Shown here: positions 2,298-42,676 of the stretch, piece by piece
Layout: each line of letters begins with the position of its first letter
Numbering within the stretch: the first letter of the stretch is position 1
IMG/VR virus record: IMGVR_UViG_2718218453_000006
DNA from: a virus
Taxonomy: Duplodnaviria; Heunggongvirae; Uroviricota; Caudoviricetes
Direction: 5' to 3' (one strand)
DNA length: 44,044 nt
Notes under the pieces: generated by a model
Databases searched by the model: none
Told to the model about the DNA's origin: nothing
The model's input: the letters and a program-made list of their open reading frames with translations, nothing else
Made by a program: the position numbers and the translations under genes

Positions 2298-2471
2298 CTG
2301 GGGGTATCTCCTTTAGACCGAACAGCGAATACCCCCATTGATACCCCCAACTCACCGTAGATTTCTGTGAACGTGAGTAGACGAGCAGAGACAACAAGGG
2401 CCGTGAAACCGCGTATTATAAGGGTTTAAAGGGTATTTGAGTAGACTTAAGGAGACGTTAAAATAGGTAGG

Positions 2472-2518
2472 ATGGTGCCGATAATAGGAGTCGAACCTAC
2501 GACCTTCGCATTACGAAT
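2472..2518. repeat. 47-bp direct repeat identical to thrW 3' end (prophage att repeat; also junction with the adjacent integrase island)
   Basis: Exact 47/47 match to 42600-42646 (atggtgccgataataggagtcgaacctacgaccttcgcattacgaat). Confidence 0.9.
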
Positions 2519-2853
2519 TATAAGAATCCACTTCTAATTCAAAGCATTACCCCATCAACACTGCGCTCACACGTCCCACCACATCAAAACATGTAAAGCC
2601 TTGCAAGCCATTGCGAGGCCTTATGTGTCTCAGTTTTGTCCCACCTTGTATTACGACTTGCATAGCCAATGAAGATAAACGTGACGACAAACGGCGCAGC
2701 AGTCTTCTTTTCCTTCATACTTTCCCCACCCAGCATGCATACCTTCTACCATAACTGTAGTGAATGTCTGTTATGAGCGAAAATCGGAAGTTAGTGTCCT
2801 CATAATTTTGATAGAATGTTCGAACTTTTCCTTTCTAAGAAACTTGAGAAGTT

Positions 2854-3285
2854 ATGAAAAAATCACTCGTGCTAGTTATGTTTCTTTTCTCAGCTTGTGT
2901 TACTGCGAGTAATGACCTAGATCTATATGATAATCAAGGCAACGCCGTCGTTTATATTTCACTTGATGACGAGTTGACTTTATATAGTTGGGAGGGTGAA
3001 CCAAGCGCCTACCTTAAACATAACCAGAACAATGAGTTTGATGTTTATGGATTCAATGGGAATCATTTAGGCTGGTTTACTAATGGTATGTTGATTGATC
3101 ACGATGGCTATGTTGCCTGTGCAGTAAAAGACATGGTTACCACACCTAATTTGCCATCACTTAAATCACTTAAGAGCCTCAAGCCTCTAAAATCGCTAAC
3201 GGAACTTCCCCCTCTTTTCCCGCTGCTAAAAAATGCCTTTGGTCAGACAAATTGTTCTTTGTTAGTAGCTTCAGGTGTTGCATAA
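2854..3285 (+). CDS. putative secreted protein or lipoprotein with C-terminal SLK/PLK repeats (143 aa)
   Basis: N-terminal signal peptide with Cys (MKKSLVLVMFLFSAC), tandem peptide repeat PSLKSLKSLKPLKSL. Confidence 0.45.
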   Translation: MKKSLVLVMFLFSACVTASNDLDLYDNQGNAVVYISLDDELTLYSWEGEPSAYLKHNQNNEFDVYGFNGNHLGWFTNGMLIDHDGYVACAVKDMVTTPNLPSLKSLKSLKPLKSLTELPPLFPLLKNAFGQTNCSLLVASGVA

Positions 3286-3661
3286 ATCCACAACGGATGC
3301 ATTTCTTGAAAGGGATGCCCCTCCAGAGGATAAAATGCTTACGGTATCCGCTCCTGACACGGAGCGGACCAATCAGGTGGTTGTAAGGTCCGCTATGAGC
3401 AAGAAGCGGAAGTTGGCAGTTTTGTGGACTGTCCCCACAAAAGTGACTACAGAAATAGTTGCAATTCATAATTGATCATGGGTTGTCAGTTAAACTCGTG
3501 GCGATTTAAATAGACTAATTGGGAGTGCGTCCATTACTTATATCTTGTAATGTTAACTATCAGAAATGATACAAAGATAATATGTCTTTAAAGAAAAGAC
3601 TGATGGCGAAAAGTGGCCCGATGAGGGCCACTGATCCTACCCACGTAATATGGACACAGGC

Positions 3662-4528
3662 CTAAGCGAGGTTCTTGTTTTCAAATTGTTCCGGACTGAG
3701 GCCGCCACACCAACTGTGCCGCCGCCACCGATTGTAATCACATTCGATATAATTAAACACCGTTGCCCGCATTATTTCCCGGCTGATAAAGTGTTCTCCA
3801 TGGATACATTCCACTTTCAGCGAATGAAAGAAGCTTTCCACGCAGGCATTATCGTAGCAGCAACCTTTTGCGCTCATACTTCCACGCAGATTATGCCGCT
3901 TCAGTTGCGCCTGATAATCTGCTGAACAGTACTGGCCTCCACGGTCCGTGTGAACGATAACGTTCCGGGGCCTCGTACGCCGCCATAGCGCCATCTGCAG
4001 GGCATCGCAGGCCAGTTGCGCCGTCATGCGTGGCGACATTGACCAGCCAATAACGGCACGTGACCACAGGTCAATGACCACTGCCAGATACAGCCAGCCT
4101 TCATCTGTACGTAAGTACGTGATGTCTCCTGCCCACTTCTGGTTCGGGCCACTGGCGTAAAAATCCTGCTCCAACAGATTTTCTGACACAGGCAGGCCGT
4201 GTGCGCGGTAGCTGACCGGGCTGAACTTCCGGGAGGCCTTTGCCCTCAGTCCCTGACGGCGCAGGCTTGCCGCCACGGTTTTTACGTTAAAGGGGTAACC
4301 CTGAGCACGCAGTTCATCCGTCAGGCGTGGGGCACCGTAACGCTGTTTTGACCGGGTAAAAGCCGCGAGGACAACGCTGTCGCAGTGTTGGCGGAACTGC
4401 TGACGCGTGCTTATCCTTGTCCGCCGCTGACACCACGTATACCAGCCGCTGCGGGCCACCCGGAGCACGCGGCACATTGCTTTGATGCTGAACTCAGCCT
4501 GATGTTTTTCAATAAAGACATACTTCAT
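3662..4528 (-). CDS. insF: IS3 transposase OrfB (DDE integrase domain)
   Basis: 288-aa ORF matching IS3 OrfB as recalled from memory, with DDE catalytic region (HTDRGGQY...). Confidence 0.9.
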
Positions 4529-4833
4529 TTCAGGCGCTTCGCGAAGTATGTCGCGGCCTTTTGGAGGATAGCCAGCTCTTCATCCCGTTCTGCCAGCTGG
4601 CGTTTGAGACGTGCAATCTCGGTAGACATCTCCAGTTCACGTTCAGAAGACGTCTGCTGATTTTGCTGTTTACTGCGCCAGTTGTAGAGCTGTGATTCAT
4701 ACAGGCTGAGTTCACGGGCTGCGGCAGTAACACCGATGCGTTCAGCAAGCTTCAGGGCTTCACTGCGAAATTCAGGCGAATGCTGTTTACGGGGTTTTTT
4801 ACTGGTTGATACTGTTTTTGTCATGTGAGTCAC
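4525..4833 (-). CDS. insE: IS3 transposase OrfA (HTH)
   Basis: 102-aa ORF matching IS3 OrfA as recalled from memory; overlaps OrfB in the frameshift configuration. Confidence 0.9.
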
Positions 4834-4906
4834 CTCTGACTGAGAGTTTACTCACTTAGCCGCGTGTCCACTATTGCTGGGTAAGATCACACAATACGGC
4901 TGTCAC

Positions 4907-5239
4907 TTAGACGTAAATATCAATGGTGCCAGCGGTATTTGTATCGTCTTTTTTCTCTTCTTTTTTATCAGGATGAACTGTCGCGTCTTCATTCTTTTTC
5001 TCTGCCTGCTGCCTTAACAACTGCTCCAGTTGAGCCCTGAGGCTTTCAATTTGCTTCTGTACCAATGCAGCCATTTCTTTTTTCTGCTGTGTCGTCATCC
5101 CCTCTTCCGATGAGATTTTCCCAAGCTTTTCAGTCAGCACCTGAATTTGTCTTGTGATTTTGGCTATTTCTGATGTTCCTTCCGGGGCGGAGTTGTTTGA
5201 AATAACGGTTGAGGTATTTCCCTGAATTGTGACAGACAT
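4907..5239 (-). CDS. flxA: FlxA-like protein (110 aa, coiled-coil)
   Basis: Sequence MSVTIQGNTSTVISNNSAPEGTSEIAKITRQ... recalled as E. coli FlxA; strong RBS (AGGAGA); preceded by a sigma-28-type promoter. Confidence 0.6.
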   Translation of the reverse strand: MSVTIQGNTSTVISNNSAPEGTSEIAKITRQIQVLTEKLGKISSEEGMTTQQKKEMAALVQKQIESLRAQLEQLLRQQAEKKNEDATVHPDKKEEKKDDTNTAGTIDIYV

Positions 5240-5262
5240 AGATTTCTCCTTTTAAAAAAGCA

Positions 5263-5289
5263 CTATCGGCATGCACAAAAAAATCTTTA
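5263..5289 (-). promoter_or_regulatory. sigma-28 (FliA) class promoter upstream of the flxA-like gene
   Basis: On the minus strand TAAAGATT-N11-GCCGATAG against consensus TAAAGTTT-N11-GCCGATAA, about 25 bp upstream of the start codon. Confidence 0.55.
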
Positions 5290-6034
5290 ATCGTATTTCT
5301 TGTGTCATTAATTGTTTGATGTTCAGATTGTTTTCCTCGCGGGCTGGCGCGCCTCAGAAAGTAAAGCTTGTTGACAGGGGTAAACGTTCGGCAATAATTT
5401 TCTGCCGCATGCGGGTGTTGCATAAAACGTGCTACGTTCCTTTATCGACAGGTCAGGTCACCGCTCACCCGCCGACGAGAAAGCAACACTGACATGCTAA
5501 AGCAAAAAATAGATGAATAAGTTGAGTTGTGCATATGTAGCCTGACCGTCACAAAGTATATGGTGTCTGTACCAGTAAGATGGTGGCCGGACTCTTTAAA
5601 AACGAGCTGACCTGCACAATACAGGATGGACTTAGCAATGGCTGCTCCTGGCACATAGCAGCCCTAGAGACAGTGGCGTAAAGTCATGGAGGGTCGGTGG
5701 CAGGAGATGCAAATCCTCTCATACAAAAATACGTAAAATCAATAACGGCTAGAAATCATTCAATACTCGCACTATCTAACATTTACCAGCCAACCGCAGC
5801 ACGTCTTGCATACGACCTGTCTGCGGTTTCAATCACCTCTCACCACCAGTCCCATCAATAATAATTAAACAGCGCCTAAACAAAATAAATAACAACAAGT
5901 CAACAACCTCGACAGGATGCCGATGGGATGATGAAGAGATAAGAAAGAATAACTAGTAAAGCCCTAAAACGTCAGCGTTCAGACGCGTTTTTTACTTAAC
6001 CGGTAACAAATACGTTGTATCATAGCAACATAAA

Positions 6035-7984
6035 ATGATTGTTCTAAATCAGATTAACTCCTCACTTTTGTACAATGTCGCTTACAGGTATACCATGAAA
6101 TCCGAGACGCTAACTGTCCAACAACTTTTTCAAGACCGCCGACAATACTGCGTTCCATTCTATCAACGTGCCTATGTATGGACTCAGCGAAACCAATGGT
6201 CAGCTCTACTGGAGGATATCCTAGAGAAAGCACAATCCCGGCTCTCGGGTACAAAACCAACTCCCCATTTCCTTGGTGCAGTGGTACTGGAACCTCAACC
6301 AAAAAAAGGATTATTAGGTGTAGATTCCATACATATTATTGATGGTCAGCAACGATTGACCACTCTTCAATATGTTCTGGCATCCATCCGATTAGCATTA
6401 CGTGCGACAGATCTTTCCAACTTAGGGCCTCTCATTTCGTCTTGCCTGAAAAACTCAAACGAAGACACAATGCGAAATAAAGAAGTAGAGCGCTTCAAAC
6501 TGTGGCCAACTTTTCGGGATCAAACTCATTTTATTCAAAGTTTTAATGTTGAAAATATTGACGATATCCGGAATGTATTCTCTGATAGTTTCACGCAGCA
6601 TGGTACGTTGCGTAAGCATTTTAATCACCCGCCATCACTAGAAGCATTATGTTTTTTTACTGAAGCCTTTATAAAGTGGATTAAAATAGAAAATCACTCA
6701 CCACGAGAAAATGCTGTAGCATTAATTGAGGCTGTCTTGACGGATCTGAAACTAGTAAGCATATTTCTCGAGGCTGAAGATGACGCTCAAATAATTTTTG
6801 AAACATTAAATGGCAGAGGTGCGGAACTTCATGCCACAGATCTTATTCGCAATTATATTTTTATGTGCGCTGAACATGAAAATATTAATGCTGTTGAATT
6901 ATATGAGAATGAGTGGAAGATCTTTGAAGATACGTACTGGTCAGAAAGACAACGTCGTGGTCGTATTAATAAACCACGCATGGAGTGGCTAGTGCATGCG
7001 ACATTGCAATCAGAAAGGCAACGTGAAATCGATCTGTCTCGTCTTTACAATGAGTATCGTGATTATGTAAGTAAGGACTTGCCTTCACAACGAGCAGATC
7101 TGCAAGTAAAGCGCCTCAAACAATATGCATCACAATATAAAGAATTGGTTGGTGGTTTTGGCACAACCCCCATCTCACACTTTGGACATCGCATCGCAGC
7201 CTATGATGTGACGACACTTTATCCGCTTGCTTTGTTCATTTCGATAGCTAACATCGCCGATGATGAGAAAGCAGCCATGTATAATGATCTTGTCTCCTAC
7301 GTAGTACGAAGAGCCGTATGTGGCCTGACGCCAAAGAATTACAACAATGTATTTATGAATGTATTGCGGCACTTGTCTAAAACGGAAATTTCCAGTGTTG
7401 AGTTACGTAATATCCTCAATAGCTTAAATGGCGAAGCCTCACGTTGGCCTGGGGACTCAGAATTTCTCAACGCTTGCATCAATGCTCCACTTTATCCTGG
7501 CAGGCTCGACGCACCGAAAATGCGCTCAATGTTAACGGAACTTGAAAGAGAACTTTGTCGCCAAGTGAAGACAGAGAAGCCTGATGTTCCAAATCTTTCT
7601 AACCTCGATATCGATCATCTTATGCCTCAAAGTTGGTATTCCTGTTGGCCTCTCGAAAATGGTCATATGGTGACAAATTCAGATGCTACGGTATTGAACC
7701 AAATTGTTCTGTCTGGAACCGATCTTACCCCTGAACAGCTACTGGTAAGGAAACGGCAACAAGCGATAGCTACGTTGGGAAATCTAACTTTGCTTAACCT
7801 TAGCGTAAACCGTTCTGTTCAGAATGCTGTATTTCTGAAAAAACGTGATGCTCTCATCGTCCACACCAATCTACGACTGAACATTCCACTTATAGTTAAG
7901 GATAAATGGGATGAGGATGAAATCCTGGAGCGGGGTAAAAAGTTGGGGGAAATTGCATTGAAAGTATGGCCAAAACACGATTAA
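6035..7984 (+). CDS. DUF262/DUF1524 fusion protein (GmrSD-like; candidate modification-dependent type IV restriction or defence nuclease); start may be the Met at 6095
   Basis: N-terminal ParB-like DUF262 motif (IIDGQQRLTTL); C-terminal His-Me/HNH-like DUF1524 motif (DIDHLMPQSW); 649 aa. Confidence 0.8.
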   Translation: MIVLNQINSSLLYNVAYRYTMKSETLTVQQLFQDRRQYCVPFYQRAYVWTQRNQWSALLEDILEKAQSRLSGTKPTPHFLGAVVLEPQPKKGLLGVDSIHIIDGQQRLTTLQYVLASIRLALRATDLSNLGPLISSCLKNSNEDTMRNKEVERFKLWPTFRDQTHFIQSFNVENIDDIRNVFSDSFTQHGTLRKHFNHPPSLEALCFFTEAFIKWIKIENHSPRENAVALIEAVLTDLKLVSIFLEAEDDAQIIFETLNGRGAELHATDLIRNYIFMCAEHENINAVELYENEWKIFEDTYWSERQRRGRINKPRMEWLVHATLQSERQREIDLSRLYNEYRDYVSKDLPSQRADLQVKRLKQYASQYKELVGGFGTTPISHFGHRIAAYDVTTLYPLALFISIANIADDEKAAMYNDLVSYVVRRAVCGLTPKNYNNVFMNVLRHLSKTEISSVELRNILNSLNGEASRWPGDSEFLNACINAPLYPGRLDAPKMRSMLTELERELCRQVKTEKPDVPNLSNLDIDHLMPQSWYSCWPLENGHMVTNSDATVLNQIVLSGTDLTPEQLLVRKRQQAIATLGNLTLLNLSVNRSVQNAVFLKKRDALIVHTNLRLNIPLIVKDKWDEDEILERGKKLGEIALKVWPKHD

Positions 7985-8079
7985 TGCAATTAATAAAATG
8001 ATTATAGCGGCTTTACATTAGTAAGGCCGCTACTCACTATTAAATCCTTTAATTTGCAACAAGAACAGCAGTGTCAGCC

Positions 8080-8208
8080 CTAGGTTTCGGACTTTGTACC
8101 GCTTATCTTGTCTTCAAAAATCAGCTCGCATCCTGCACAGCTCAACGCATTACGTTGTAGATCGGTGTTCTGGTCATTTGTTGATACGCGTACATAGCCA
8201 ATAAGCAT
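8080..8208 (-). pseudogene. 5' remnant of a Pin/Gin/Hin-family serine DNA invertase (42 codons then stop)
   Basis: Minus-strand translation MLIGYVRVSTNDQNTDLQRNALSCAGCELIFEDKISGTKSE then TAG; matches the invertase N-terminus including the catalytic Ser region; RBS GGGGGAG present; rest of the gene absent. Confidence 0.8.
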
Positions 8209-8263
8209 GGTAGCTCCCCCTGACAAAAGCAGGAATGATGCCATTTGCTCGTTATTTCTGCAT

Positions 8264-8289
8264 CTTCATAAACGTTGGTTTGGGAGAAG
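8264..8289. repeat. gix/hix-like recombination site (one arm of the inverted repeat flanking the invertible tail-fibre segment)
   Basis: cttcataaacgttggtttgggagaag is near-identical to the reverse complement of 10058-10083; resembles hix/gix core AAACC..GGTTT. Confidence 0.6.
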
Positions 8290-8609
8290 CGGCAAAACGG
8301 AATGTGGGAACTGGGGAAAATCAGATACCTGATATGTCATCATATGCATCAGGTTCAGGCTGGCGAAAAATGCCAGATGGTTCAATTGAACAGTGGGGAC
8401 GAATTAGTTTTCCTAGTGAACACGGGCCTGTATCCGCCAATGTTTCATTCCCGATTCCATTTACACAGACACCGGGCATTGTAATTGTGTGCGATGGTGG
8501 TTTCGGGGGTGGGAATATGTGGGGGGCGACCAACTGGAGCACTACCGGCTTCATAGCTCACTGCAATTATGGTCTTGAAGGTGGTGCGTTTTTCGCTAAG
8601 GGCTGGTAA
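8264..8609 (+). CDS. alternative tail-fibre C-terminal cassette (Sv'), currently not joined to the constant N-terminus
   Basis: Plus-strand ORF begins at the gix-like site with NVGLGE, mirroring NLGLGD in the expressed fibre; followed by its own tfa. Confidence 0.5.
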
Positions 8610-9052
8610 TGATGAAATATCTGTACGTAAACAACCTGGCATATCCTTACGAACTTAAGTCTCTTTATGTTGAAAAAGGTGAGTGGCCTGAAGAAAAAGG
8701 TGTTGATATAGACGAAGTAATTTTCAGGGAATATTTCTATGATACACCACCAGAAGGAAAATACAGATGTGTCGGAGAAGATGGACTGCCTGCATGGGTA
8801 GATATTCCTCCACCAACACGTGAAGAACAAATTGCATCAGCCGAAACTAAAAAGCAGCAATTGATTAATCAGGCCAACGAATACATCAACAGTAAACAAT
8901 GGCCAGGTAAAGCATCAATTGGTCGTCTGAAAGGTGAGGAACTGGTGCAATATAATTTGTGGCTGGATTATCTGGACGCACTGGAACTGGTTGATACCTC
9001 CAGTGCTCCAGATATTGAATGGCCTACGCCTCCGGCAGTTCAGGCCAGATGA
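8609..9052 (+). CDS. tail fibre assembly protein (alternative, Tfa')
   Basis: 147-aa ORF with the conserved Tfa C-terminus ([27 protein letters not shown]). Confidence 0.7.
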   Translation: MMKYLYVNNLAYPYELKSLYVEKGEWPEEKGVDIDEVIFREYFYDTPPEGKYRCVGEDGLPAWVDIPPPTREEQIASAETKKQQLINQANEYINSKQWPGKASIGRLKGEELVQYNLWLDYLDALELVDTSSAPDIEWPTPPAVQAR

Positions 9053-9458
9053 CATCCGGCGCAGTGCTGGTATCTGTTGCCGTCACCGCGTCAATGTAAT
9101 CCAGCACGGCGTTAAGTCGGGTGGTTTCTGCCTGCGTCAGCTTCCGCCCGGCCTGCAGCTTTAACTGAATCACGCTGATATTGACCATTGCTGCGTCTAT
9201 CAACGACTGTTTTTTCTGTTCAGCGTCAGCTACCAGTTCATCATGAGAACGTTCCGGAGGGAGCGGCGCAGTAAATACCCCGTCTGAATACGCCCAGCCG
9301 ATTCCGGGCTGCTCACTGATATCAGAAATATTAATGAGCTGCAGATTATCCGGCACAGTGAATTCATCCTCGCCATCCCAGACAATGACATTCACAACCA
9401 TCCCATTTTCAATAACTGCATATGACGCATTCATTATGCAAACTCCTCGATAATACAA
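9024..9458 (-). CDS. tail fibre assembly protein (Tfa)
   Basis: 144-aa ORF, C-terminal [28 protein letters not shown]; directly downstream of the tail-fibre gene. Confidence 0.8.
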
Positions 9459-10360
9459 ACCCCATCAGCACCTTTCCCGCCCGTCATACTGGTTCCGCTA
9501 TAACCTGCATCGTATGCACCACCTCCGCCTGAACCAAATGCCCTGCCTCTAACGCCACCGCCAGCGCCTGCACGTCCACCGCCTCCCCAGTACGATGCAC
9601 CGCCTTCACCGCTGACGCTGATATTCCCGGACTGACCGTCGCCTCCATCTCCACCAGTGATGCGGATATCGCCAATATTCGGTACGCCTCCGTTACCGCC
9701 GTTTGTGTTTGTGACTCCTACTTTTCCGCCGCCTTCACCACCAGGGGCTATTACCGATCCGAACGAGCTATCACCGCCCTTGAGGCCGTTCGTCGCACCA
9801 ACGCCGCCGGCCCCACCTGCGCCGATAGTGACAGGATAACTATTCTGTGTCGGGGTCAGTATGGTGATTACTGTCCCTCCGGCCCCACCGCCAGCACCGA
9901 AAAACGTTTCGTTACTGGATATAGCCTGGCAGCCACCCCCTCCGCCACCGCCGCCCGTTATTGTGACCCTGATCCGTTTTGTTTCTGGTGATGGGGTATA
10001 CGTACCTGATGACGCGAAAGCCCGGGTACTCAGCCGGCGTCCCACGTATCCGCTTGTATCTCCCAAACCAAGGTTTTGAAGAGCCGTTTTCACCGTGCCG
10101 TCCGATTTGATATCGCCAAACGGATTTTTGCGACTTAACAGCAGCGCACGAAGCGCGGTAAGCAGCTGGTCATGCCGCCCCTTCTCCAGGCTGGCACCGG
10201 ATGCCTCCACCACGCTGCAGAGCTCCTCCTGCAACATGTCAAAGTAGTCATCATCCAGATCGGTGGCAGGCGTGCCGGTCTGGGGGTTACCACGGGTAAA
10301 ACCGTTCTTACCCGCGCCGAACTTATCCTTCTGCGCGGTTTTCGTGTCTATACGATGCAT
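9434..10360 (-). CDS. tail fibre protein (glycine-rich, Mu S-like), currently expressed orientation
   Basis: 308-aa ORF with poly-Gly tracts; constant N-terminus (10085-10360) joined to a variable part inside the invertible segment. Confidence 0.8.
10058..10083. repeat. gix/hix-like recombination site inside the tail-fibre gene (second arm of the inverted repeat)
   Basis: Minus-strand ctcttcaaaaccttggtttgggagat; matches hix/gix-type TTC..AAAACC..GGTTT core. Confidence 0.6.
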
Positions 10361-10363
10361 GGA

Positions 10364-10948
10364 TTACTCCGGATATTTAAAAATTACGTAGGTATGCGAC
10401 GGGCAGAGTTTGTTAAGCACGCACTCGATAACGGTGTCCCCCCAGATACGCAGTGCGGAATCGCAGGGATCGCCACATGTCATCCAGGTGGTGTTGGTGG
10501 CAGCTGGCATATTGACCTGCCAGTAATACCGCCATTCCGGCGCATTCACCGCGTCAGTACAGGCCGATGAGCAGGTGAACGTGCTTTTGTCGTATCGCGT
10601 GATGGTGGCATCTGGTCTGCCCAGGGCAGCAAGCTGCGCAAGGTAAAAATCCTCATTGATGCCACCCGCCAGGTTAACCTTCGCATCCAGCCGTTGCTGA
10701 CGCTGGCGAAGGGTCTGCGTCCCTGCCGGAATACATTCATCCGGCAGGCCGCACAGACGCTCCCAGCGGTTTATCAGTTCGGTGGTGGTGCGCGGATCCA
10801 GCTCCCGCATCAGGGCATCCGCACGCTGATGAGCACGGGTTAATGACGGTGCCGCACCGGCAATCGCCGGATCGCTGGCTGACCACGCCGGACCGGGGGG
10901 CAACAGTGCCGACAACAGACGGATGTAATCATCGTTTGTCACGTCCAT
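10364..10948 (-). CDS. Mu gp48-like tail/baseplate protein (DUF2313/YmfQ-like)
   Basis: 194-aa ORF in the conserved position between baseplate J and the tail fibre. Confidence 0.65.
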
Positions 10949-11997
10949 GAAATCGTCCCCAGTACCGCCAGTTCATTTTTTGCAATGGAGATATTGTCTG
11001 CCGGTGCAAGCAACTGATGGCTGTATTCCCCGTTCGCACCGGAAATCGCCTCACTGATACGCGATACCTTCAGTTCTCCCTGCGGATAACCATCACGCAG
11101 AAGAAACGAACGCAACTCCGCGGTGATGGCGGCTCGTATTTCTGGTGTGTCCGGCGTCACGCGGATATGAAAATCCACTTTGTGCGCCACCGGCCTGAAT
11201 ACATACAAATCAGAGCCTGCCACCGGGGCCAGTGGCACGATATGTTGTCTTGCTGCCGTTTCCGTTGATTCTTCCGGAATGGGATTAATCAGGTCACTGC
11301 TGGCAATCATCACACCGACAGTTCCCGTTCCCATCCAGTGACGGTATGTCCATGCGCGGGTAATGCCGGGCACTTCTTTAGCCCAGACGACATAGTCCCC
11401 GTCAGCCCCGCCCTGAGGCGTCCAGTAATACCGCTCAATGACGCGGGCGCGCCACGTTTCCAGCTCTTCAGTATCAAATCCGCCTGTAAGGGTGTCAGCC
11501 ACACCGGAAGACGGCAGACCATTCACCGGCGTGACCAGGATTAATGCCGTACCGTCGTCAGCGTTACCGACCGCACCTGCACTTGAGCAGGCGATCGGCA
11601 CGCGCAGGACACCACCGGAGCTGGTTGCATCGGCAGTTGCCGTGTACTGAACCAGGTCATCGCGCTGAATAACACTCCCGGCGGTCACCTTCAGGCCATC
11701 GCTGACACCTTCCCAGCGCATATACCCGCTGGCAGCCGTGGCCCCCTTGCGCGGACACCGTTTCATCGCAGCATGTCGCGCCAGCCAGGACTCATCGCAC
11801 AGGTCAGGCAGCATGTTCATTGCCAGATAATCGATGTAACCGTAAACCGTATGCAGCGCCGCCGCATACACCTTTGCCCGCACGTCTTCATCCATGCGCC
11901 GGAGCGTGTCGCTGACGTCCAGCCTGGTGAATAAATCGTTACGGAGCATACTGATATTTTCTGCCAGCGTCGGGCGCTGAAATTCACTGTCCGCCAT
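10939..11997 (-). CDS. baseplate J-like protein (Mu gp47 family)
   Basis: 352-aa ORF, position and size in a Mu-type baseplate cluster. Confidence 0.75.
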
Positions 11998-12412
11998 GCG
12001 TTATCGCACTCCACAGATCATCAAAAGAAATCATTACCGGTCCGTCACGACGCCAGAGAGTGATACTGTTACCCAGTTCATTAATCCCGGTGCGGCGGAT
12101 ATCCAGATCAATACGGGACACCACGCCGTCATCAATCATCCATTGCAGGCATTCGCGGATATACCCCCTTACCGTCTGCACCAGCTGATTGGTCAGTTTG
12201 CTGCGCTGAAGCAGCCACAGTCGGGAGCCGTAACGGTCATTCTGTACCGCAGGCCAGGTATCCCCCCACCATCCCATCGGGACGTCGGCGTTGTCATCAG
12301 GCTCCGCCCGCCGCCAGGTAAACAGGGAAATCACCACGGCGCGGGTCAGCGGATCCAGTTCTGCGCTGGCGCAGGTGCGTTTACCGTTCACCGTCAGCCA
12401 CAGTTCCATCAT
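11984..12412 (-). CDS. Mu gp46-like baseplate protein
   Basis: 142-aa ORF between the spike and baseplate J genes. Confidence 0.65.
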   Translation of the reverse strand: MMELWLTVNGKRTCASAELDPLTRAVVISLFTWRRAEPDDNADVPMGWWGDTWPAVQNDRYGSRLWLLQRSKLTNQLVQTVRGYIRECLQWMIDDGVVSRIDLDIRRTGINELGNSITLWRRDGPVMISFDDLWSAITHGGQ

Positions 12413-12957
12413 GCCTCCATCGCTTTATCAGGTTTGTCGGTGTTACTGCCCTGACCGTTCTCTCTGTGACGATGCCCGTTATAGGCAAGCCGCATCGCTG
12501 ACATGGTGGTACCGCCGGAGTCGCACAGGTCTTTCACCTGTCCGGTCACTTCCAGGTCCATTTCAAAACGTGCTCTGGGCGCATTGCGAAACGTGATCGT
12601 TTTACCTGCACCGTCCACCACGATCCCCTCCCGGGTCAGCGTCACAGACTGCCCCTGATCGTCATAGACAGCCACCTCACCCGTCTGCAGCCCTTTCAGG
12701 CGGTAGCGCCGGTCCGACACCGTAACAACCACCGCATGAGAACGGTCGCCATCCGGAAACAACACCACCGCTTCCGCACCGCTGTTTGCCCTTGCGGTAA
12801 AACCGTAGGGTTCAAGATGTTCAACCCCGGCTTTGGGTTCACCGGCAATCAGGGACACATCCACGGTCTGACATTTCGTGGCGGCACTGATGCTTTTCAC
12901 CACTGCCCGCCCAATCAGGCCGAGAAGTTGTCGCTGCATGGCTTCAATCGTCCTCAT
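12409..12957 (-). CDS. baseplate assembly protein V / spike (Mu gp45-like)
   Basis: 182-aa ORF; gene order. Confidence 0.7.
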   Translation of the reverse strand: MRTIEAMQRQLLGLIGRAVVKSISAATKCQTVDVSLIAGEPKAGVEHLEPYGFTARANSGAEAVVLFPDGDRSHAVVVTVSDRRYRLKGLQTGEVAVYDDQGQSVTLTREGIVVDGAGKTITFRNAPRARFEMDLEVTGQVKDLCDSGGTTMSAMRLAYNGHRHRENGQGSNTDKPDKAMEA

Positions 12958-14036
12958 CAGAACGGGTCCTCCTGTACTCTGGCTTTTTTCTTTTTCCGCG
13001 CACCGGGATCTTCGGGTTCAGGCAGATAAGCATCAGGTGGGCCGACACGGATTTCCGTCAGGGTGCCGTTCTGGTCCTGAGTAAACGTGACTTCCGAAAC
13101 AAGCAGTTCGGTATTGTCGAAACCACAGACCGGATCAAAGACAATCACCCGCTGGTTGGGCTGCCACAGCGTACCGTTACCCTGTCGCCAGCCCTGCACC
13201 ACATAGGTGGTTTCATCCGTCCGCGCCGCCCGTTGTCGGGCTTCAAAGTCCGCACGGGCAATACAGCCTGCCCCCGTAGCCTGCCCTGTCTGCCTGATAT
13301 ACATCGGACGGTAACGGGCAATAAATGCGTCCTCTGTGCGGGCCCGCAGCGCGGTGGTGGTGGCCTCACCGAAATCATCGTCGTTTCCGGCACGCTGCCC
13401 CGCCACCTGGTAAACAGAAAATCGCTCCCGGATACTCTTCTCCGTATCGCAGGAAAGGATGTTTTCCCCGAGTACCAGCGCAGTATGTGCCCGCGTTGAG
13501 CCAATACCGCCAATCACCAGCCTGCCGTGCGGGTCGTCGTAAGCCAGTGCCTGCTGCTGACCGAGTATTTTGTTGATTACCTCAATCACCGTTTCACCGT
13601 GATCAGGCTGAACATCAGGAATAACACCCGACGGCGCACCGCTGTTCACCACCTCAATGCCGAAAGGCGCAGCAAGCGCCTGCGCAATCTGCACCAGCGA
13701 GCGTCCGTTAAACTGTGTCGGTTCGGCTGCACAGTCAATCAGGTCAGCCGTCAGACTACGTCCGGCAATACCGGTGCTGACCGAACGGGCATCGTAACGA
13801 ACGGGAGTCGCCTCCACCCAGCCGGTGATCACCAGCTCATCACCAATCAGCACTTCCACTTTTGAACCGTTTTTAATGCGCGGCTGAAGCGTGGTGATAC
13901 CCTCATCTCCCGGCCACTGGCGAGTGATCTCCACACTGAAATCCCGCGCCAGCCGTTCAATACCGGCACCGATGCGCACCGATGTCCAGCCATTCCACTC
14001 CCGGCCATTTACCCGTAGCGTGACATTGTCGTTCAT
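12957..14036 (-). CDS. baseplate hub / late control D-like tail protein (Mu gp44-like)
   Basis: 359-aa ORF after the DNA-circulation gene; gene order. Confidence 0.7.
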   Translation of the reverse strand: MNDNVTLRVNGREWNGWTSVRIGAGIERLARDFSVEITRQWPGDEGITTLQPRIKNGSKVEVLIGDELVITGWVEATPVRYDARSVSTGIAGRSLTADLIDCAAEPTQFNGRSLVQIAQALAAPFGIEVVNSGAPSGVIPDVQPDHGETVIEVINKILGQQQALAYDDPHGRLVIGGIGSTRAHTALVLGENILSCDTEKSIRERFSVYQVAGQRAGNDDDFGEATTTALRARTEDAFIARYRPMYIRQTGQATGAGCIARADFEARQRAARTDETTYVVQGWRQGNGTLWQPNQRVIVFDPVCGFDNTELLVSEVTFTQDQNGTLTEIRVGPPDAYLPEPEDPGARKKKKARVQEDPF

Positions 14037-15403
14037 TGCACTGGCACCTTCAGAGGGATCACCGGCACAAAGCCGGGATGCGTAATGGCATTACGCCGGA
14101 TAATGTCCGCGTCACGCGCCGCGTTATCAAACCAGGTCGCCGCCAGCACCAGCGCGGGTAAAACCTCATCCGGCGTGCGCTGAATGATCCGTGCAGACTG
14201 TTCAAGGCGCGTGTTGATATCCGCATTCAGATCTGCTTTCACCCGGCGCAGCGCCAGAAACAGCGCATCACTGGTTGTACGGGACAACTCCTTATCAATT
14301 GCCGTATTCAGTGTGTCGCGAATGTCGGTCAGTTCTTCCCACGTTGGCAGGTCAACCGTGTTTTTCACCGCCGGTGCATTGTTCAGTGCCGGATGCGTGA
14401 CAGAAGGCCAGCCGGTGCTCTGCGCGGGTGTTGTTGACTGCCCCACTGTGGCATTCTGCATCACCGCGGAAGTTGTGGGCGCAGGCAATCGTGTGACGGC
14501 ATACGCCGCTTCGCTGATTGCGGTCGTACGAAGGGTGCTGGCAACCACGTTACGCTGCTGCGTCGCCGTGGCGGTGGTTTTACTGTCCGTTTTCCAGACG
14601 CCGCGCGGTTGCAGATCGCTGCCGAGGCTGACACCGGAAAGCGTTTTGATCATGGTGACCAGGTCGCTGGCGTTACCATAAAGGCGTTTCCCGGTACGCC
14701 ACATTTTCTGCACCTGCTCAACGAAATTTTTTCCTGACGATGGCGGCGGCAGAAGTACCGAGATATCCCCCTGCAACAGCCTGGCGGCATCCGATACGGC
14801 AGAATCCACCACTTTCATCGCATCAGAAATATACCCAAGCATTGTGCTGGCATTACCGACGACGTCGTTCTGCACAAAATCTGCCACGCCATCGATACTG
14901 AAACCACTGAAGCTGTCACTGATGCAGTCATCCAGTGCAGAACAGGATGACATCAGCGTCTGCGCCGTCGCCGCACCTGAAGTGGGGTAAGAGAGTTCTC
15001 CCGCTTCGACAAACTTCAGGTCAAAGCGGACAATACGCCCTTCACTCTTCGATGTGCTGACCCGAACTTCCCCGTCAACACAGACTTTCAGCTCACCGTA
15101 AGTCGGATGGACAAGCGTGCCGGGACCGGGTTTATTCAGCGCGTCAATCAGGCGATCGCGCTGGTCAAAGCAGTCATCTCCCACCACATAAGCTGTGATG
15201 GACGGGCGGAAAGTGATTTTCCCCAGGTCTTCGGTATAGGGTTTGTCGCGGTTCGGGTATTCGTGCGTTTCCACACGACGACCGGTTCCCGCACTTTCTT
15301 CTTCAACCTTAAATGGCACACCGCGAAATGACGCGTCCTGAAGTCTGTCTTTCCACGTCATATAAACTCCGTACATAAAAAATCCCACCGGAGTGGGACT
15401 CAT
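14033..15403 (-). CDS. Mu gp43-like DNA circulation protein
   Basis: 456-aa ORF immediately after the tape-measure gene. Confidence 0.7.
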   Translation of the reverse strand: MSPTPVGFFMYGVYMTWKDRLQDASFRGVPFKVEEESAGTGRRVETHEYPNRDKPYTEDLGKITFRPSITAYVVGDDCFDQRDRLIDALNKPGPGTLVHPTYGELKVCVDGEVRVSTSKSEGRIVRFDLKFVEAGELSYPTSGAATAQTLMSSCSALDDCISDSFSGFSIDGVADFVQNDVVGNASTMLGYISDAMKVVDSAVSDAARLLQGDISVLLPPPSSGKNFVEQVQKMWRTGKRLYGNASDLVTMIKTLSGVSLGSDLQPRGVWKTDSKTTATATQQRNVVASTLRTTAISEAAYAVTRLPAPTTSAVMQNATVGQSTTPAQSTGWPSVTHPALNNAPAVKNTVDLPTWEELTDIRDTLNTAIDKELSRTTSDALFLALRRVKADLNADINTRLEQSARIIQRTPDEVLPALVLAATWFDNAARDADIIRRNAITHPGFVPVIPLKVPVQ

Positions 15404-29916: not shown

Positions 29917-30231
29917 TTAAACACCTAACGCCCGACGCCCCAGCGCCATTGCTGCTTTTATTGTGGAACCGAATCCCATAAAGAAATCAGCAACCAGATC
30001 ACCAGGTCGACTACTGGCATTGATTATTTGCCTGAGCATATCCGCCGGTTTCTCGCACGGATGTTTACCCGGGTAGAACTGAACGGGCTTATGCGTCCTG
30101 ACATCGGTATAAGGCACGGAGACTGATACGGAGAAATAGCGCCGGTGAGATTTAAACTCATCCAGCAATTCAGACGATTTGCAATTCAGTGAATCATGAG
30201 ATACCACCAACTGGTGGTAGGATTGTCTCAA
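29917..30231 (-). pseudogene. fragment of a beta-class N4/N6 DNA methyltransferase (C-terminal motif I region only)
   Basis: HPCEKP...GDLVADFFMGFGSTIKAAMALGRRALG matches the AdoMet-binding DPFxGSGTT region; no DPPY catalytic motif and only 104 aa. Confidence 0.6.
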
Positions 30232-39497: not shown

Positions 39498-39752
39498 TTG
39501 ATTTTCCTTTTATGTATACGCGCTTAAAAGGATACCACCGAGCCTGAAGTGGTGAAAAGACAGGCACATAACAGCTAAGTATTTTCAACCAGAGAGAATC
39601 CTTAGCGTTGTGGTGAATGCGGCTCAGCGCACGCGGGTTAAGGTTGAGGCTGACAGTCGACCTTCTGTGGATACCCACCCGCCTGGTGTGCAACCTTCGC
39701 CAGGCACCGGGAGGCTCCCGGCACCACAACTTTATGCTGTGTGTAGTCTTGG

Positions 39753-39797
39753 CGGTACCAGCTTGTACCCTTGCTTCCGGCTGGTACCGTCCTTTTT
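39753..39797 (+). terminator. strong intrinsic terminator within a GC-rich structured non-coding stretch
   Basis: Perfect 10-bp stem CGGTACCAGC/GCTGGTACCG with 17-nt loop followed by TCCTTTTTAC. Confidence 0.5.
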
Positions 39798-39983
39798 ACA
39801 AAACAGAGAAGAGCATCACCGGACGACGGGCTCATAACCCAATCCATCCGGGCGGCTGCCACCGCAGGTGTTCTTCTCTGTTTTGTGGAGAAACTAACCG
39901 CCCCTACGGGGGCATTTATGGAAATGTAATTGACTCAATAATCGCCGGACGGTGAGGGCTTCCTTTTACCCGAATTCAGCGCG

Positions 39984-41196: not shown

Positions 41197-41546
41197 TGGA
41201 GCCATACAGCCTCACACTCGATGAGGCCTGTCATTTTCTCAAGATATCCAGACCGACTGCCATTAACTGGATACGCACAGGGCGTCTTCAGGCAACACGC
41301 AAAGATCCCACTAAGAATAAATCTCCTTACCTCACAACACGACAAGCCTGCATTGCGGCTCTTCAGTCTCCGCTGCATACTGTCCAGGTGAGCGCGGGTG
41401 ATGGCATAACAGAGGAAAGAAAATGTCACTCTTCCGCAGAGGTGAAATATGGTACGCCAGTTTCACATTGCCGAACGGTAAAAGATTTAAACAGTCTCTT
41501 GGAACAAAGGACAAAAGGCAGGCGACAGAACTCCATGACAAGCTAA
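41196..41546 (+). CDS. xis: excisionase (P22/Sf-type Xis)
   Basis: 116-aa HTH protein ([30 protein letters not shown]) immediately upstream of and overlapping int. Confidence 0.75.
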
Positions 41547-42586
41547 AGGCTGAAGCATGGCGGGTCAGCAAACTTGGTGAAATACCTGATATAACGTTCG
41601 AGGAAGCGTGTGTCAGGTGGCTTGAAGAGAAAGCACATAAAAAATCACTGGACGATGACAAAAGCCGGATCGGATTCTGGCTTCAACATTTCGCAGGAAT
41701 GCAACTAAGAGACATTACTGAATCAAAAATTTATTCAGCAATGCAGAAAATGACGAACCGGCGTCATGAGGAAAACTGGAGACTCAGGGCAGAAGCATGC
41801 AGAAAAAAAGGGAAACCTGTTCCAGAATACACGCCAAAACCAGCGTCCGTTGCAACGAAGGCTACGCATCTTTCATTTATAAAGGCCCTACTAAGAGCCG
41901 CAGAGCGTGAATGGAAAATGCTGGATAAGGCACCAATTATTAAAGTGCCTCAACCAAAGAATAAACGGATCCGCTGGCTGGAGCCCCATGAAGCACAAAG
42001 GCTGATTGATGAATGTCCGGAGCCATTAAAGTCTGTTGTTGAATTTGCACTGGCAACAGGCTTAAGACGCTCGAACATCATCAACCTTGAATGGCAACAA
42101 ATAGACATGCAGCGCCGGGTGGCATGGATAAACCCGGAAGAGAGTAAATCAAACCGCGCAATTGGCGTTGCGCTGAATGATACTGCATGTCGCGTTTTGA
42201 AAAAACAAATCGGGAATCATCACCGTTGGGTATTTGTGTACAAGGAAAGCTGTACCAAACCAGACGGAACGAAAGCGCCAACAGTAAGGAAGATGCGGTA
42301 TGACGCAAACACAGCCTGGAAAGCGGCGCTGAGACGGGCTGGTATTGATGATTTCAGATTTCACGACTTGAGACACACCTGGGCAAGTTGGCTGGTTCAA
42401 GCCGGAGTCCCGTTGTCAGTGTTACAGGAAATGGGAGGCTGGGAGTCTATCGAAATGGTTCGTCGATATGCTCACCTTGCACCTAATCACCTTACCGAAC
42501 ACGCACGGCAAATAGACTCGATCCTGAACCCATCGGTCCCAAATTTGTCCCAGTCAAAAAATAAGGAAGGTACTAATGATGTGTAA
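41423..42586 (+). CDS. int: tyrosine integrase, P22/Sf-phage type (thrW-specific)
   Basis: 387-aa ORF near-identical to the P22 Int sequence as recalled; catalytic RHTWAS...Y region; ends 14 bp from the thrW 3' end. Confidence 0.95.
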
Positions 42587-42600
42587 CTTATTGATTTAAA

Positions 42601-42676
42601 TGGTGCCGATAATAGGAGTCGAACCTACGACCTTCGCATTACGAATGCGCTGCTCTACCAACTGAGCTATATCGGC
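42601..42676 (-). tRNA. thrW: tRNA-Thr (anticodon CGU)
   Basis: 76-nt cloverleaf GCCGATATAGCTCAGTTGGTAGAGCAGCGCATTCGTAATGCG...GGTTCGACTCC...CCA on the minus strand. Confidence 0.95.

Follow-up and report, generated by a model that had tools for sequence, protein, structure and literature searches.

The 44,044-nt stretch of DNA analysed here (the window; IMG/VR record IMGVR_UViG_2718218453_000006, a virus of the Caudoviricetes) contains, between positions 8080 and 10360, an invertible tail-fibre switch of the Din family. The segment between its two crossover sites is about 1.8 kb long and holds two alternative tail-fibre tips together with their chaperones, on alternating strands. On one side it is joined to the constant part of the fibre gene and on the other to a truncated invertase gene (pin), which is followed by a restriction gene. 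The features of the locus are as follows.

10084-10360, minus strand: Sc, StfP-like part of the tail-fibre gene that encodes the constant N-terminus; the Sc copies in the JB2 and UTI89 prophages are identical to it or nearly so; 'stfP' in RefSeq
10058-10083: right 26-bp crossover site, inside the tail-fibre gene; ATCTCCCAAACC AA GGTTTTGAAGAG, core AA at 10070-10071
9434-10057, minus strand: Sv, variable C-terminus of the fibre in the current orientation, glycine-rich; Pfam Gly_rich_2, continuous open reading frame (ORF) with Sc
9024-9434, minus strand: tfa, assembly chaperone for Sv, 136 aa; Pfam Caudo_TAP (E = 2e-21), PHROG 188
8609-9052, plus strand: tfa', assembly chaperone for Sv', 147 aa; Pfam Caudo_TAP (E = 2e-33), PHROG 188
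8289-8609, plus strand: Sv', silent alternative fibre C-terminus (gp53-like C domain); Pfam Gp53-like_C
8263-8288: left 26-bp crossover site (pix-like); TCTTCATAAACG TT GGTTTGGGAGAA, core TT at 8275-8276
8083-8208, minus strand: invertase (pinE-type) stub of 42 codons, stop codon at 8080-8082; MLIGYVRVSTNDQNTDLQRNALSCAGCELIFEDKISGTKSET
8101-8187: putative Fis-dependent recombinational enhancer inside the stub, with three G-N13-C motifs (from homology and motif position)
6095-7984, plus strand: GmrSD-family type IV (modification-dependent) restriction enzyme; Pfam GmrSD_N and GmrSD_C, PADLOC mREase_IV

Sites, cassettes and the truncated invertase gene

The core of the two 26-bp sites is an inverted repeat of 18 nt (8270-8287 and 10059-10076) in which one position differs. 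When the pattern AAACSTTGGTTTGGGAGA was searched for in the window, two exact matches were found on opposite strands, with 0.01 expected by chance. The first-pass annotation of this DNA had placed 26-bp hix/gix-like repeats at 8264-8289 and 10058-10083; the sites are confirmed, the right-hand coordinates are exact, and the left-hand ones are shifted by one position (8263-8288). In the alignment of the two sites the core dinucleotide is the same (AA), and perfect identity between the repeat arms extends over only 13-16 nt. The sites also align with known ones, as that annotation had proposed to check: they match those beside the intact pinE gene of strain JB2 at 25/26 (left) and 23/26 (right) positions, and the AAACC-NN-GGTTT layout of both is that of Mu gix. 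The locus has the pair of inverted 26-bp imperfect-dyad sites around identical 2-bp cores that is characteristic of the Din family. The right site also coincides with a mosaic boundary between phage tail-fibre modules, as DNA identity to the Shigella phages SfV, SfI, SfII and SfIV stops exactly at window position 10059 (megablast).

The G-segment-like order Sv, tfa, tfa', Sv' described earlier was borne out by the Pfam and PHROG matches and by in-frame ORFs in both orientations. Sc and Sv form one continuous 308-aa ORF (9434-10360), the stop codon of which is overlapped by the ATG of tfa (TAATG). When the segment was inverted in silico, an in-frame Sc-Sv' fusion of 207 aa was obtained; the annotation of strain T2 lists this fusion as a complete gene. 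The locus is organized as a tail-fibre host-range cassette, with a split gene, one chaperone per tip and a reading frame that stays open both ways (308 aa and 207 aa). The start called for the Sv' ORF (8235) precedes the left site, as it does in stfE of e14.

RefSeq divides the 308-aa fibre ORF into an 'stfP' pseudogene (10058-10360) and a 'glycine-rich domain-containing protein' (9434-10045), and labels the 136-aa tfa as partial. The latter label looks over-cautious, as the PHROG 188 matches of tfa and tfa' both begin at residue 1 and cover the same part of the profile. The split ORF and the partial label look like annotation artefacts of the mosaic junction at the crossover site.

The reduction of the invertase to a 42-codon stub was likewise confirmed. 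Homology to pin covers only 8086-8208 and ends at 8085/8086, so 41 codons derive from pin, and the last codon and the stop codon come from inserted DNA. Three quarters of the invertase gene are gone from the prophage. With residues 1-44 of PinE the stub shares 93% identity; in Pfam it hits the N-terminal end of the Resolvase profile (positions 2-48 of 145), and RefSeq lists it as a pseudogene without its C-terminus. No other Pin homologue was found in the window (tblastn, E<=10). Of the complete serine invertase gene that adjoins Din-family segments (catalytic domain and C-terminal helix-turn-helix), only codons 1-41 are present. The locus is a Din-type switch by its sites, not a self-contained system.

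The DNA beyond pin codon 41 is unrelated and carries the GmrSD gene. By its predicted domains the 6095-7984 product has the GmrSD organization, an N-terminal GmrS domain (PF03235, E = 5e-34; DUF262/GmrS, ParB-like) fused to a C-terminal GmrD domain (PF07510, E = 5e-20; DUF1524/GmrD, HNH), and it matches PADLOC mREase_IV over its full length (1438 bits). In the intact relative JB2 the gene order is segment, pinE, mcrA, icd', and the GmrSD gene of the window sits where mcrA, also encoding a type IV enzyme, adjoins the intact pinE. Because the DNA after codon 41 is unrelated and carries GmrSD where JB2 has pinE and then mcrA, we concluded that a cargo swap at the prophage end clipped pin, GmrSD replacing its 3' three quarters and whatever lay downstream. 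It seems that modification-dependent restriction genes can be exchanged for one another at the position behind pin. The junction itself (CCGAAACC TA GGGCT) was also considered as a crossover half-site and was dropped, as its 8/12 and 4/12 matches are no better than chance.

When 5426 complete E. coli genomes were searched, the GmrSD/stub junction was present in 302 of them (296 by a longer probe), and in every case the 3' flank of this GmrSD gene was accompanied by the stub. The junction goes back to one event that its carriers share.

Inversion by Din enzymes requires an enhancer that lies in cis and is bound by Fis. When the 5' ends of Mu gin, JB2 pinE, a P2-like invertase gene and two stubs were aligned, three G-N13-C motifs were found to be conserved, at +22, +71 and +94 of the pin coding sequence (8173-8187, 8124-8138 and 8101-8115). 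All three lie within the retained 123 nt, are identical to those of intact pinE and are positioned as in Mu gin; together, the first two cover 64 bp, and about 88 bp separate the start of this stretch from the midpoint of the left site. The 65-bp enhancer of hin is bounded by two Fis sites and sits roughly 100 bp away from hix (PMC3798978), and gin has three Fis sites within its coding region (PMC3378877). By this homology the stub locus would keep the region expected to hold the enhancer, and the motifs may act as one. In K-12, complete deletion of pinE locks the P segment despite the presence of pinQ and pinR (PMC12529663), which fits loss of the cis enhancer and can also be explained by loss of PinE itself. 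The first-pass annotation had mentioned neither the enhancer region in the stub, nor the clipping of pin by the GmrSD cargo swap, nor the wide spread of the junction.

Orientation of the segment among carriers of the truncation

Orientation was assessed by comparing genome assemblies. The window at 7900-10400 is E. coli chromosome and is 100% identical to seven complete genomes (e.g. strain 127). Strain T2 (NZ_CP114792.1) has the same stub and the same GmrSD protein, and its segment is inverted exactly at the sites. When T2 was compared with the window inverted in silico, the two were collinear over 5224-14082, with 0 mismatches in 5907-11928, and the crossover was confined to 8275-8287, an interval that contains the core dinucleotide. 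Among genomes with the window-type segment, eight have the orientation of the window and three the inverted one (27% minority).

A second stub-bearing lineage, a prophage at ssrA in strains of sequence type 95 (ST95), has the same junction. Between UTI89 and IHE3034 the segment of this prophage is inverted between the sites, and the flanks are 100% identical over 6590 nt and 4099 nt. The two orientations were found in 78 and 24 genomes of the ST95 lineage (24% minority). The minority orientation amounts to 33% in e14 with intact pinE (PMC12529663), and the 24-27% observed here is similar. Both orientations with exchange at the crossover sites, as expected of a Din-family switch, are seen in this comparison between genomes.

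Because the truncation is a single shared event, orientation differences among carriers of the junction post-date it, unless a pre-flipped segment was imported. From these assemblies we conclude that in at least two lineages the segment has been inverted since the enzyme was lost. The description of the locus in the first-pass annotation as a fossil that is probably locked is contradicted by these same-junction prophages, which occur in both orientations with flanks otherwise 100% identical and breakpoints inside the sites.

Strain EC1722-1 has a further version of the locus (positions 2358-3608 of the EC1722-1 stretch compared), with the same glycine-rich cassette. It has lost Sv', the left site and the greater part of tfa', has acquired a ClpP-like gene, and retains of pin only a C-terminal fragment with an internal stop codon. 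This version of the cassette is probably locked.

Candidate invertases and competing explanations

Since the catalytic and DNA-binding domains of pin are gone, the enzyme for this switch must come from elsewhere. The first-pass annotation had allowed for a trans-acting invertase encoded elsewhere in the genome and had called for a search of the full genome for pin/gin/hin homologues. This caveat is the reading that we favour. The chromosome of the flipped strain T2 has an intact 196-aa pinQ gene (3069044-3069634, beside ydfK and tfaQ), the product of which is identical to K-12 PinQ at 194/196 positions, and it has no other pinE-type gene.

In these searches a GmrSD anchor in the probes brought the relevant genomes to the top, and extra matches to the invertase probe were then counted. 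Probes for pinE are blind to pinQ and pinR (39% protein identity), and a separate pinQ probe was used. DNA covering at least 80% of pinE is present in 2189/5426 E. coli genomes; the pinQ search matched 3126 genomes, including about 300 via the GmrSD anchor only. With a probe avoiding an internal pinE-like remnant, no pinE-type N- or C-terminal DNA beyond the stub was found in the chromosomes of T2, 127, LAU-OXA, KMi012, PEC131/165, CH459 and MINF_8D, each of which has at least one pinQ-type match. The sole exception among the window-type genomes is ET474, with no pinQ-type match and one pinE-type match.

The remnant is an isolated 147-nt internal pinE-like fragment (nt 124-270, about 82% identical), which is very common, lying near 1.1-1.3 Mb in many E. 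coli chromosomes, and can be mistaken for another pin copy in searches at the DNA level. A second pin gene in T2 and 127, which two matches to a probe of the GmrSD anchor plus the C-terminal 426 nt of pinE had seemed to indicate, was ruled out as this remnant. Because the probe avoiding it gave only one place, no pinE-type gene is present in these two chromosomes.

The pinQ gene of T2 was also expected at its K-12-syntenic position; instead, the tail end of the Qin-like prophage found there abuts bioA, and pinQ lies at the other junction. T2 has two similar lambdoid prophages with exchanged ends (2.23-2.28 and 3.05-3.10 Mb), the rspB-side Qin genes being joined to bioA and ydfJ-ydfK-pinQ to another prophage. 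This indicates an inversion of about 0.8 Mb by recombination between the two prophages.

Action of such enzymes on foreign segments has precedents. PinQ, PinR and PinE each invert the e14 P segment, as shown experimentally (Kirigo et al. 2025, PMC12529663), and the P repeats given there (TTGGTTTGGGAGAAGG) match the left site of the window at 15/16 positions. The same paper cites cross-reactions of Fin on hix and of PinE on the Mu G segment and the Salmonella H segment; action of Fin of Fels-2 on the H segment (Kutsukake et al. 2006) is cited in PMC12529663 and PMC4272514.

We consider it likely that this Din-family switch is orphaned and not dead, and is flipped by invertases made elsewhere. 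In this model, the GmrSD cassette would have replaced the rest of pin after codon 41, leaving both 26-bp sites and the 5' part of pin that matches the Fis-bound enhancer. Both sites would then be bound by a serine invertase of the Pin family that another element in the cell provides; candidates are PinQ or PinR of Qin/Rac-type prophages, a PinE-type enzyme of e14-like or P2-like prophages, or the enzyme of a superinfecting phage. The borrowed invertase would synapse with the Fis-enhancer complex and exchange strands at the central dinucleotide, so that the fibre C-terminus (glycine-rich Sv or gp53-like Sv') and the matching chaperone would be swapped together. Such flipping would still be going on and would not be merely occasional.

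Several points weigh against this model. Flipping was seen between assemblies, not within one culture or at read level; the enhancer was assigned from homology and motif position only; and the right site of the window differs from the JB2 site at 3/26 positions. The extra Pin-type matches are counts, inspected in strain T2 only, and PinQ, the activity of which on the window sites is putative, is only 39% identical to PinE. In addition, about half of the listed ST95 genomes, including PMV-1 in the minority orientation, have no other Pin-type chromosomal DNA, and some ST95 flips must therefore be historical, plasmid- or phage-borne, or the work of a more divergent enzyme. Finally, the junction has moved between prophages by homologous recombination, which makes import of a pre-flipped segment formally possible.

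This last point is the basis of the view that the switch is a true fossil, locked since the truncation, with the GmrSD-stub module recombined into prophages that already differed in orientation and had intact pin. The module (5752-8338) is shared at 96% identity by the window prophage and the different ssrA prophage of the ST95 strains, with different attachment sites and cassettes, so it does move, and about 180 bp of pin/spacer homology would be available for the crossover. For import to explain the data, donor and recipient would nevertheless have had to match perfectly (100%) in the segment and in both flanks, over 6-10 kb and in each of two separate lineages, and import would have had to occur within the clonal ST95 group too (78 vs 24 genomes). 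Inversion in situ accounts for the same data in one step, and we regard a fossil switch as very unlikely.

Inversion might also proceed with no invertase, if the short repeats recombined by the general, RecA-dependent homologous route or if replication switched templates between them. Inverted repeats can mediate rare recombinase-independent inversions, and such a route would suit the flipped genomes that have no detectable chromosomal Pin-type gene. The perfect identity of 13-16 nt between the arms is far below the length for efficient RecA recombination, which argues against it; the repeats are genuine crossover sites of the Din type, the core dinucleotide lies within the breakpoint interval, and the minority fraction resembles that of invertase-proficient e14. 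This explanation we hold to be extremely unlikely. A different proposal accepts inversion by PinQ or PinR and gives it a role in host defence: the phage-induced flip would yield a chimeric stub-side fibre fragment (start at 8235 plus the other cassette, like StfE2) that blocks T-even adsorption, alongside the adjacent GmrSD, which would restrict the glucosyl-hydroxymethylcytosine DNA of the same phages. The ORF start upstream of the left site is exactly as in stfE of e14, inversion of e14 by PinQ produces StfE2, a protein that prevents adsorption of phage T2 (PMC12529663), the DNA of T-even phages is a target of GmrSD (PMC4619093), and the switch and GmrSD stayed linked in 302 genomes. On the other side, the prophage seems to be complete and inducible, ordinary variation in host range would be explanation enough, its cassettes are unlike those of e14, and a promoter and terminator scan of 7900-8400 gave no signal above chance. 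We consider co-option for defence unlikely.

Returning to the orphaned switch flipped by foreign invertases, we suggest tentatively, and as something more doubtful than probable, that the truncation survived and spread (302 genomes, at least two lineages) because the cis enhancer was kept. Such 'recombinase-parasitic' switches would be run by the invertases of co-resident prophages, e.g. PinQ induced by phage infection, possibly as a joint defence and host-range module with the anti-T-even GmrSD.

It follows for annotation that a pseudogenised recombinase beside inverted repeats should not be read as a dead switch, since the sites and enhancer can stay in use via enzymes from other mobile elements. 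About 5.6% of complete E. coli genomes carry the truncated switch, including the model uropathogens UTI89, S88, NU14 and IHE3034, and both tail-fibre forms are to be considered expressible in phage host-range prediction and annotation. The locus also offers a natural test of the cis-enhancer requirement, in that an enhancer-keeping stub still appears to flip whereas full pinE deletion is reported to lock the segment. A GmrSD-for-McrA swap at a prophage cargo hotspot can clip a neighbouring gene without destroying the neighbouring function.

Prophage setting and comparison with known systems

The switch belongs to a prophage of about 40 kb (2472-42646), delimited by two identical 47-bp sequences in direct orientation.

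2472-2518: attL, at the left end of the prophage; 47-bp attachment sequence from the 3' part of tRNA-Thr, repeated exactly at 42600-42646
42600-42646: attR copy of the 47-bp repeat, within tRNA-Thr (thrW); adjoins the integrase gene (41469-42587) and proA (RefSeq annotation and repeat)

It is an SfV/e14-like temperate prophage at thrW, with Mu/SfV/e14-like tail and baseplate genes and a full set of head, tail, lysis, regulatory and integrase genes annotated by RefSeq. An e14-type insertion at icd, which the gene order and a 417-aa ORF at the end of the window had suggested, was ruled out by the RefSeq annotation and the 47-bp repeat, which place it at thrW/proA. Besides the stub and ydfV', the only damaged genes flagged by RefSeq are a 5'-truncated DNA methyltransferase gene and a frameshifted hypothetical gene (29917-30231 and 39611-39930). 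The prophage may still be inducible.

Directly left of the attL repeat lies a second integrase gene, of P4 type (1083-2297; Arm-DNA-bind_3, Phage_int_M and Phage_integrase), which suggests that thrW is occupied in tandem by another island, like CP4-6 of K-12. The cargo between attL and GmrSD (2854-5657) comprises a gene for a 4-fold beta-flower protein and a flxA-like gene, as well as an IS3 element (3662-4824) and a ydfV gene lacking its 5' end; in K-12, both flxA and ydfV belong to the Qin prophage. In strain T2, IS1 takes the place of the flxA/IS3 part of this region.

The closest known system is the e14 P segment with PinE (K-12, and intact e14-like prophages such as that of JB2). It has the same order of J-like baseplate gene, ymfQ, Sc, Sv, tfa, tfa', Sv', pin and type IV restriction gene, and the spacer between the site and the ATG of pinE is the same as in the window. 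The e14 prophage differs in being at icd with intact pin and mcrA, whereas the window has pin cut after codon 41, GmrSD, a glycine-rich Sv and a full-length prophage at thrW. The Mu G segment with Gin (and the P1 C segment with Cin) has the same Sc/Sv/U/U'/Sv' architecture, with the invertase gene beside the segment on the strand of S, and the three Fis-type motifs of Mu gin are at coding positions identical to those of the stub. Mu carries a complete gin, in contrast to the window, which is without the catalytic and DNA-binding domains.

The Shigella phages SfV, SfI, SfII and SfIV share 95.7-96.2% DNA identity over ymfQ and Sc (window 10059-10948) and have a Mu-like tail module; the segment and the stub gave no match in them (megablast). 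They also integrate at thrW/proA. GmrS/GmrD of CT596 and the single-chain GmrSD of UTI89-type strains belong to the same enzyme family as that of the window and lie next to tail-fibre assembly genes and an 'invertase'. For CT596 this neighbourhood of tail-fibre assembly genes and invertase is already noted in PMC4619093 (citing Bair and Black 2007). In the literature on GmrSD of CT596 and UTI89-type strains, as far as we found it, neither the truncation of the neighbouring invertase nor the function of the switch is addressed.

Trans-action among Din invertases is long established, and the mechanism is not new. In the action of PinQ and PinR on e14 P and of Fin on Salmonella H, the invertase of one prophage flips the segment of another element, and T2 likewise combines an intact PinQ with a flipped segment. 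The e14 P and Salmonella H targets keep an invertase gene of their own, whereas the window switch would depend obligately on a foreign enzyme. What appears to be unreported is such a natural, widespread and obligately trans-dependent version, together with a breakpoint that spares the enhancer region and the link to a GmrSD-for-McrA cargo swap.

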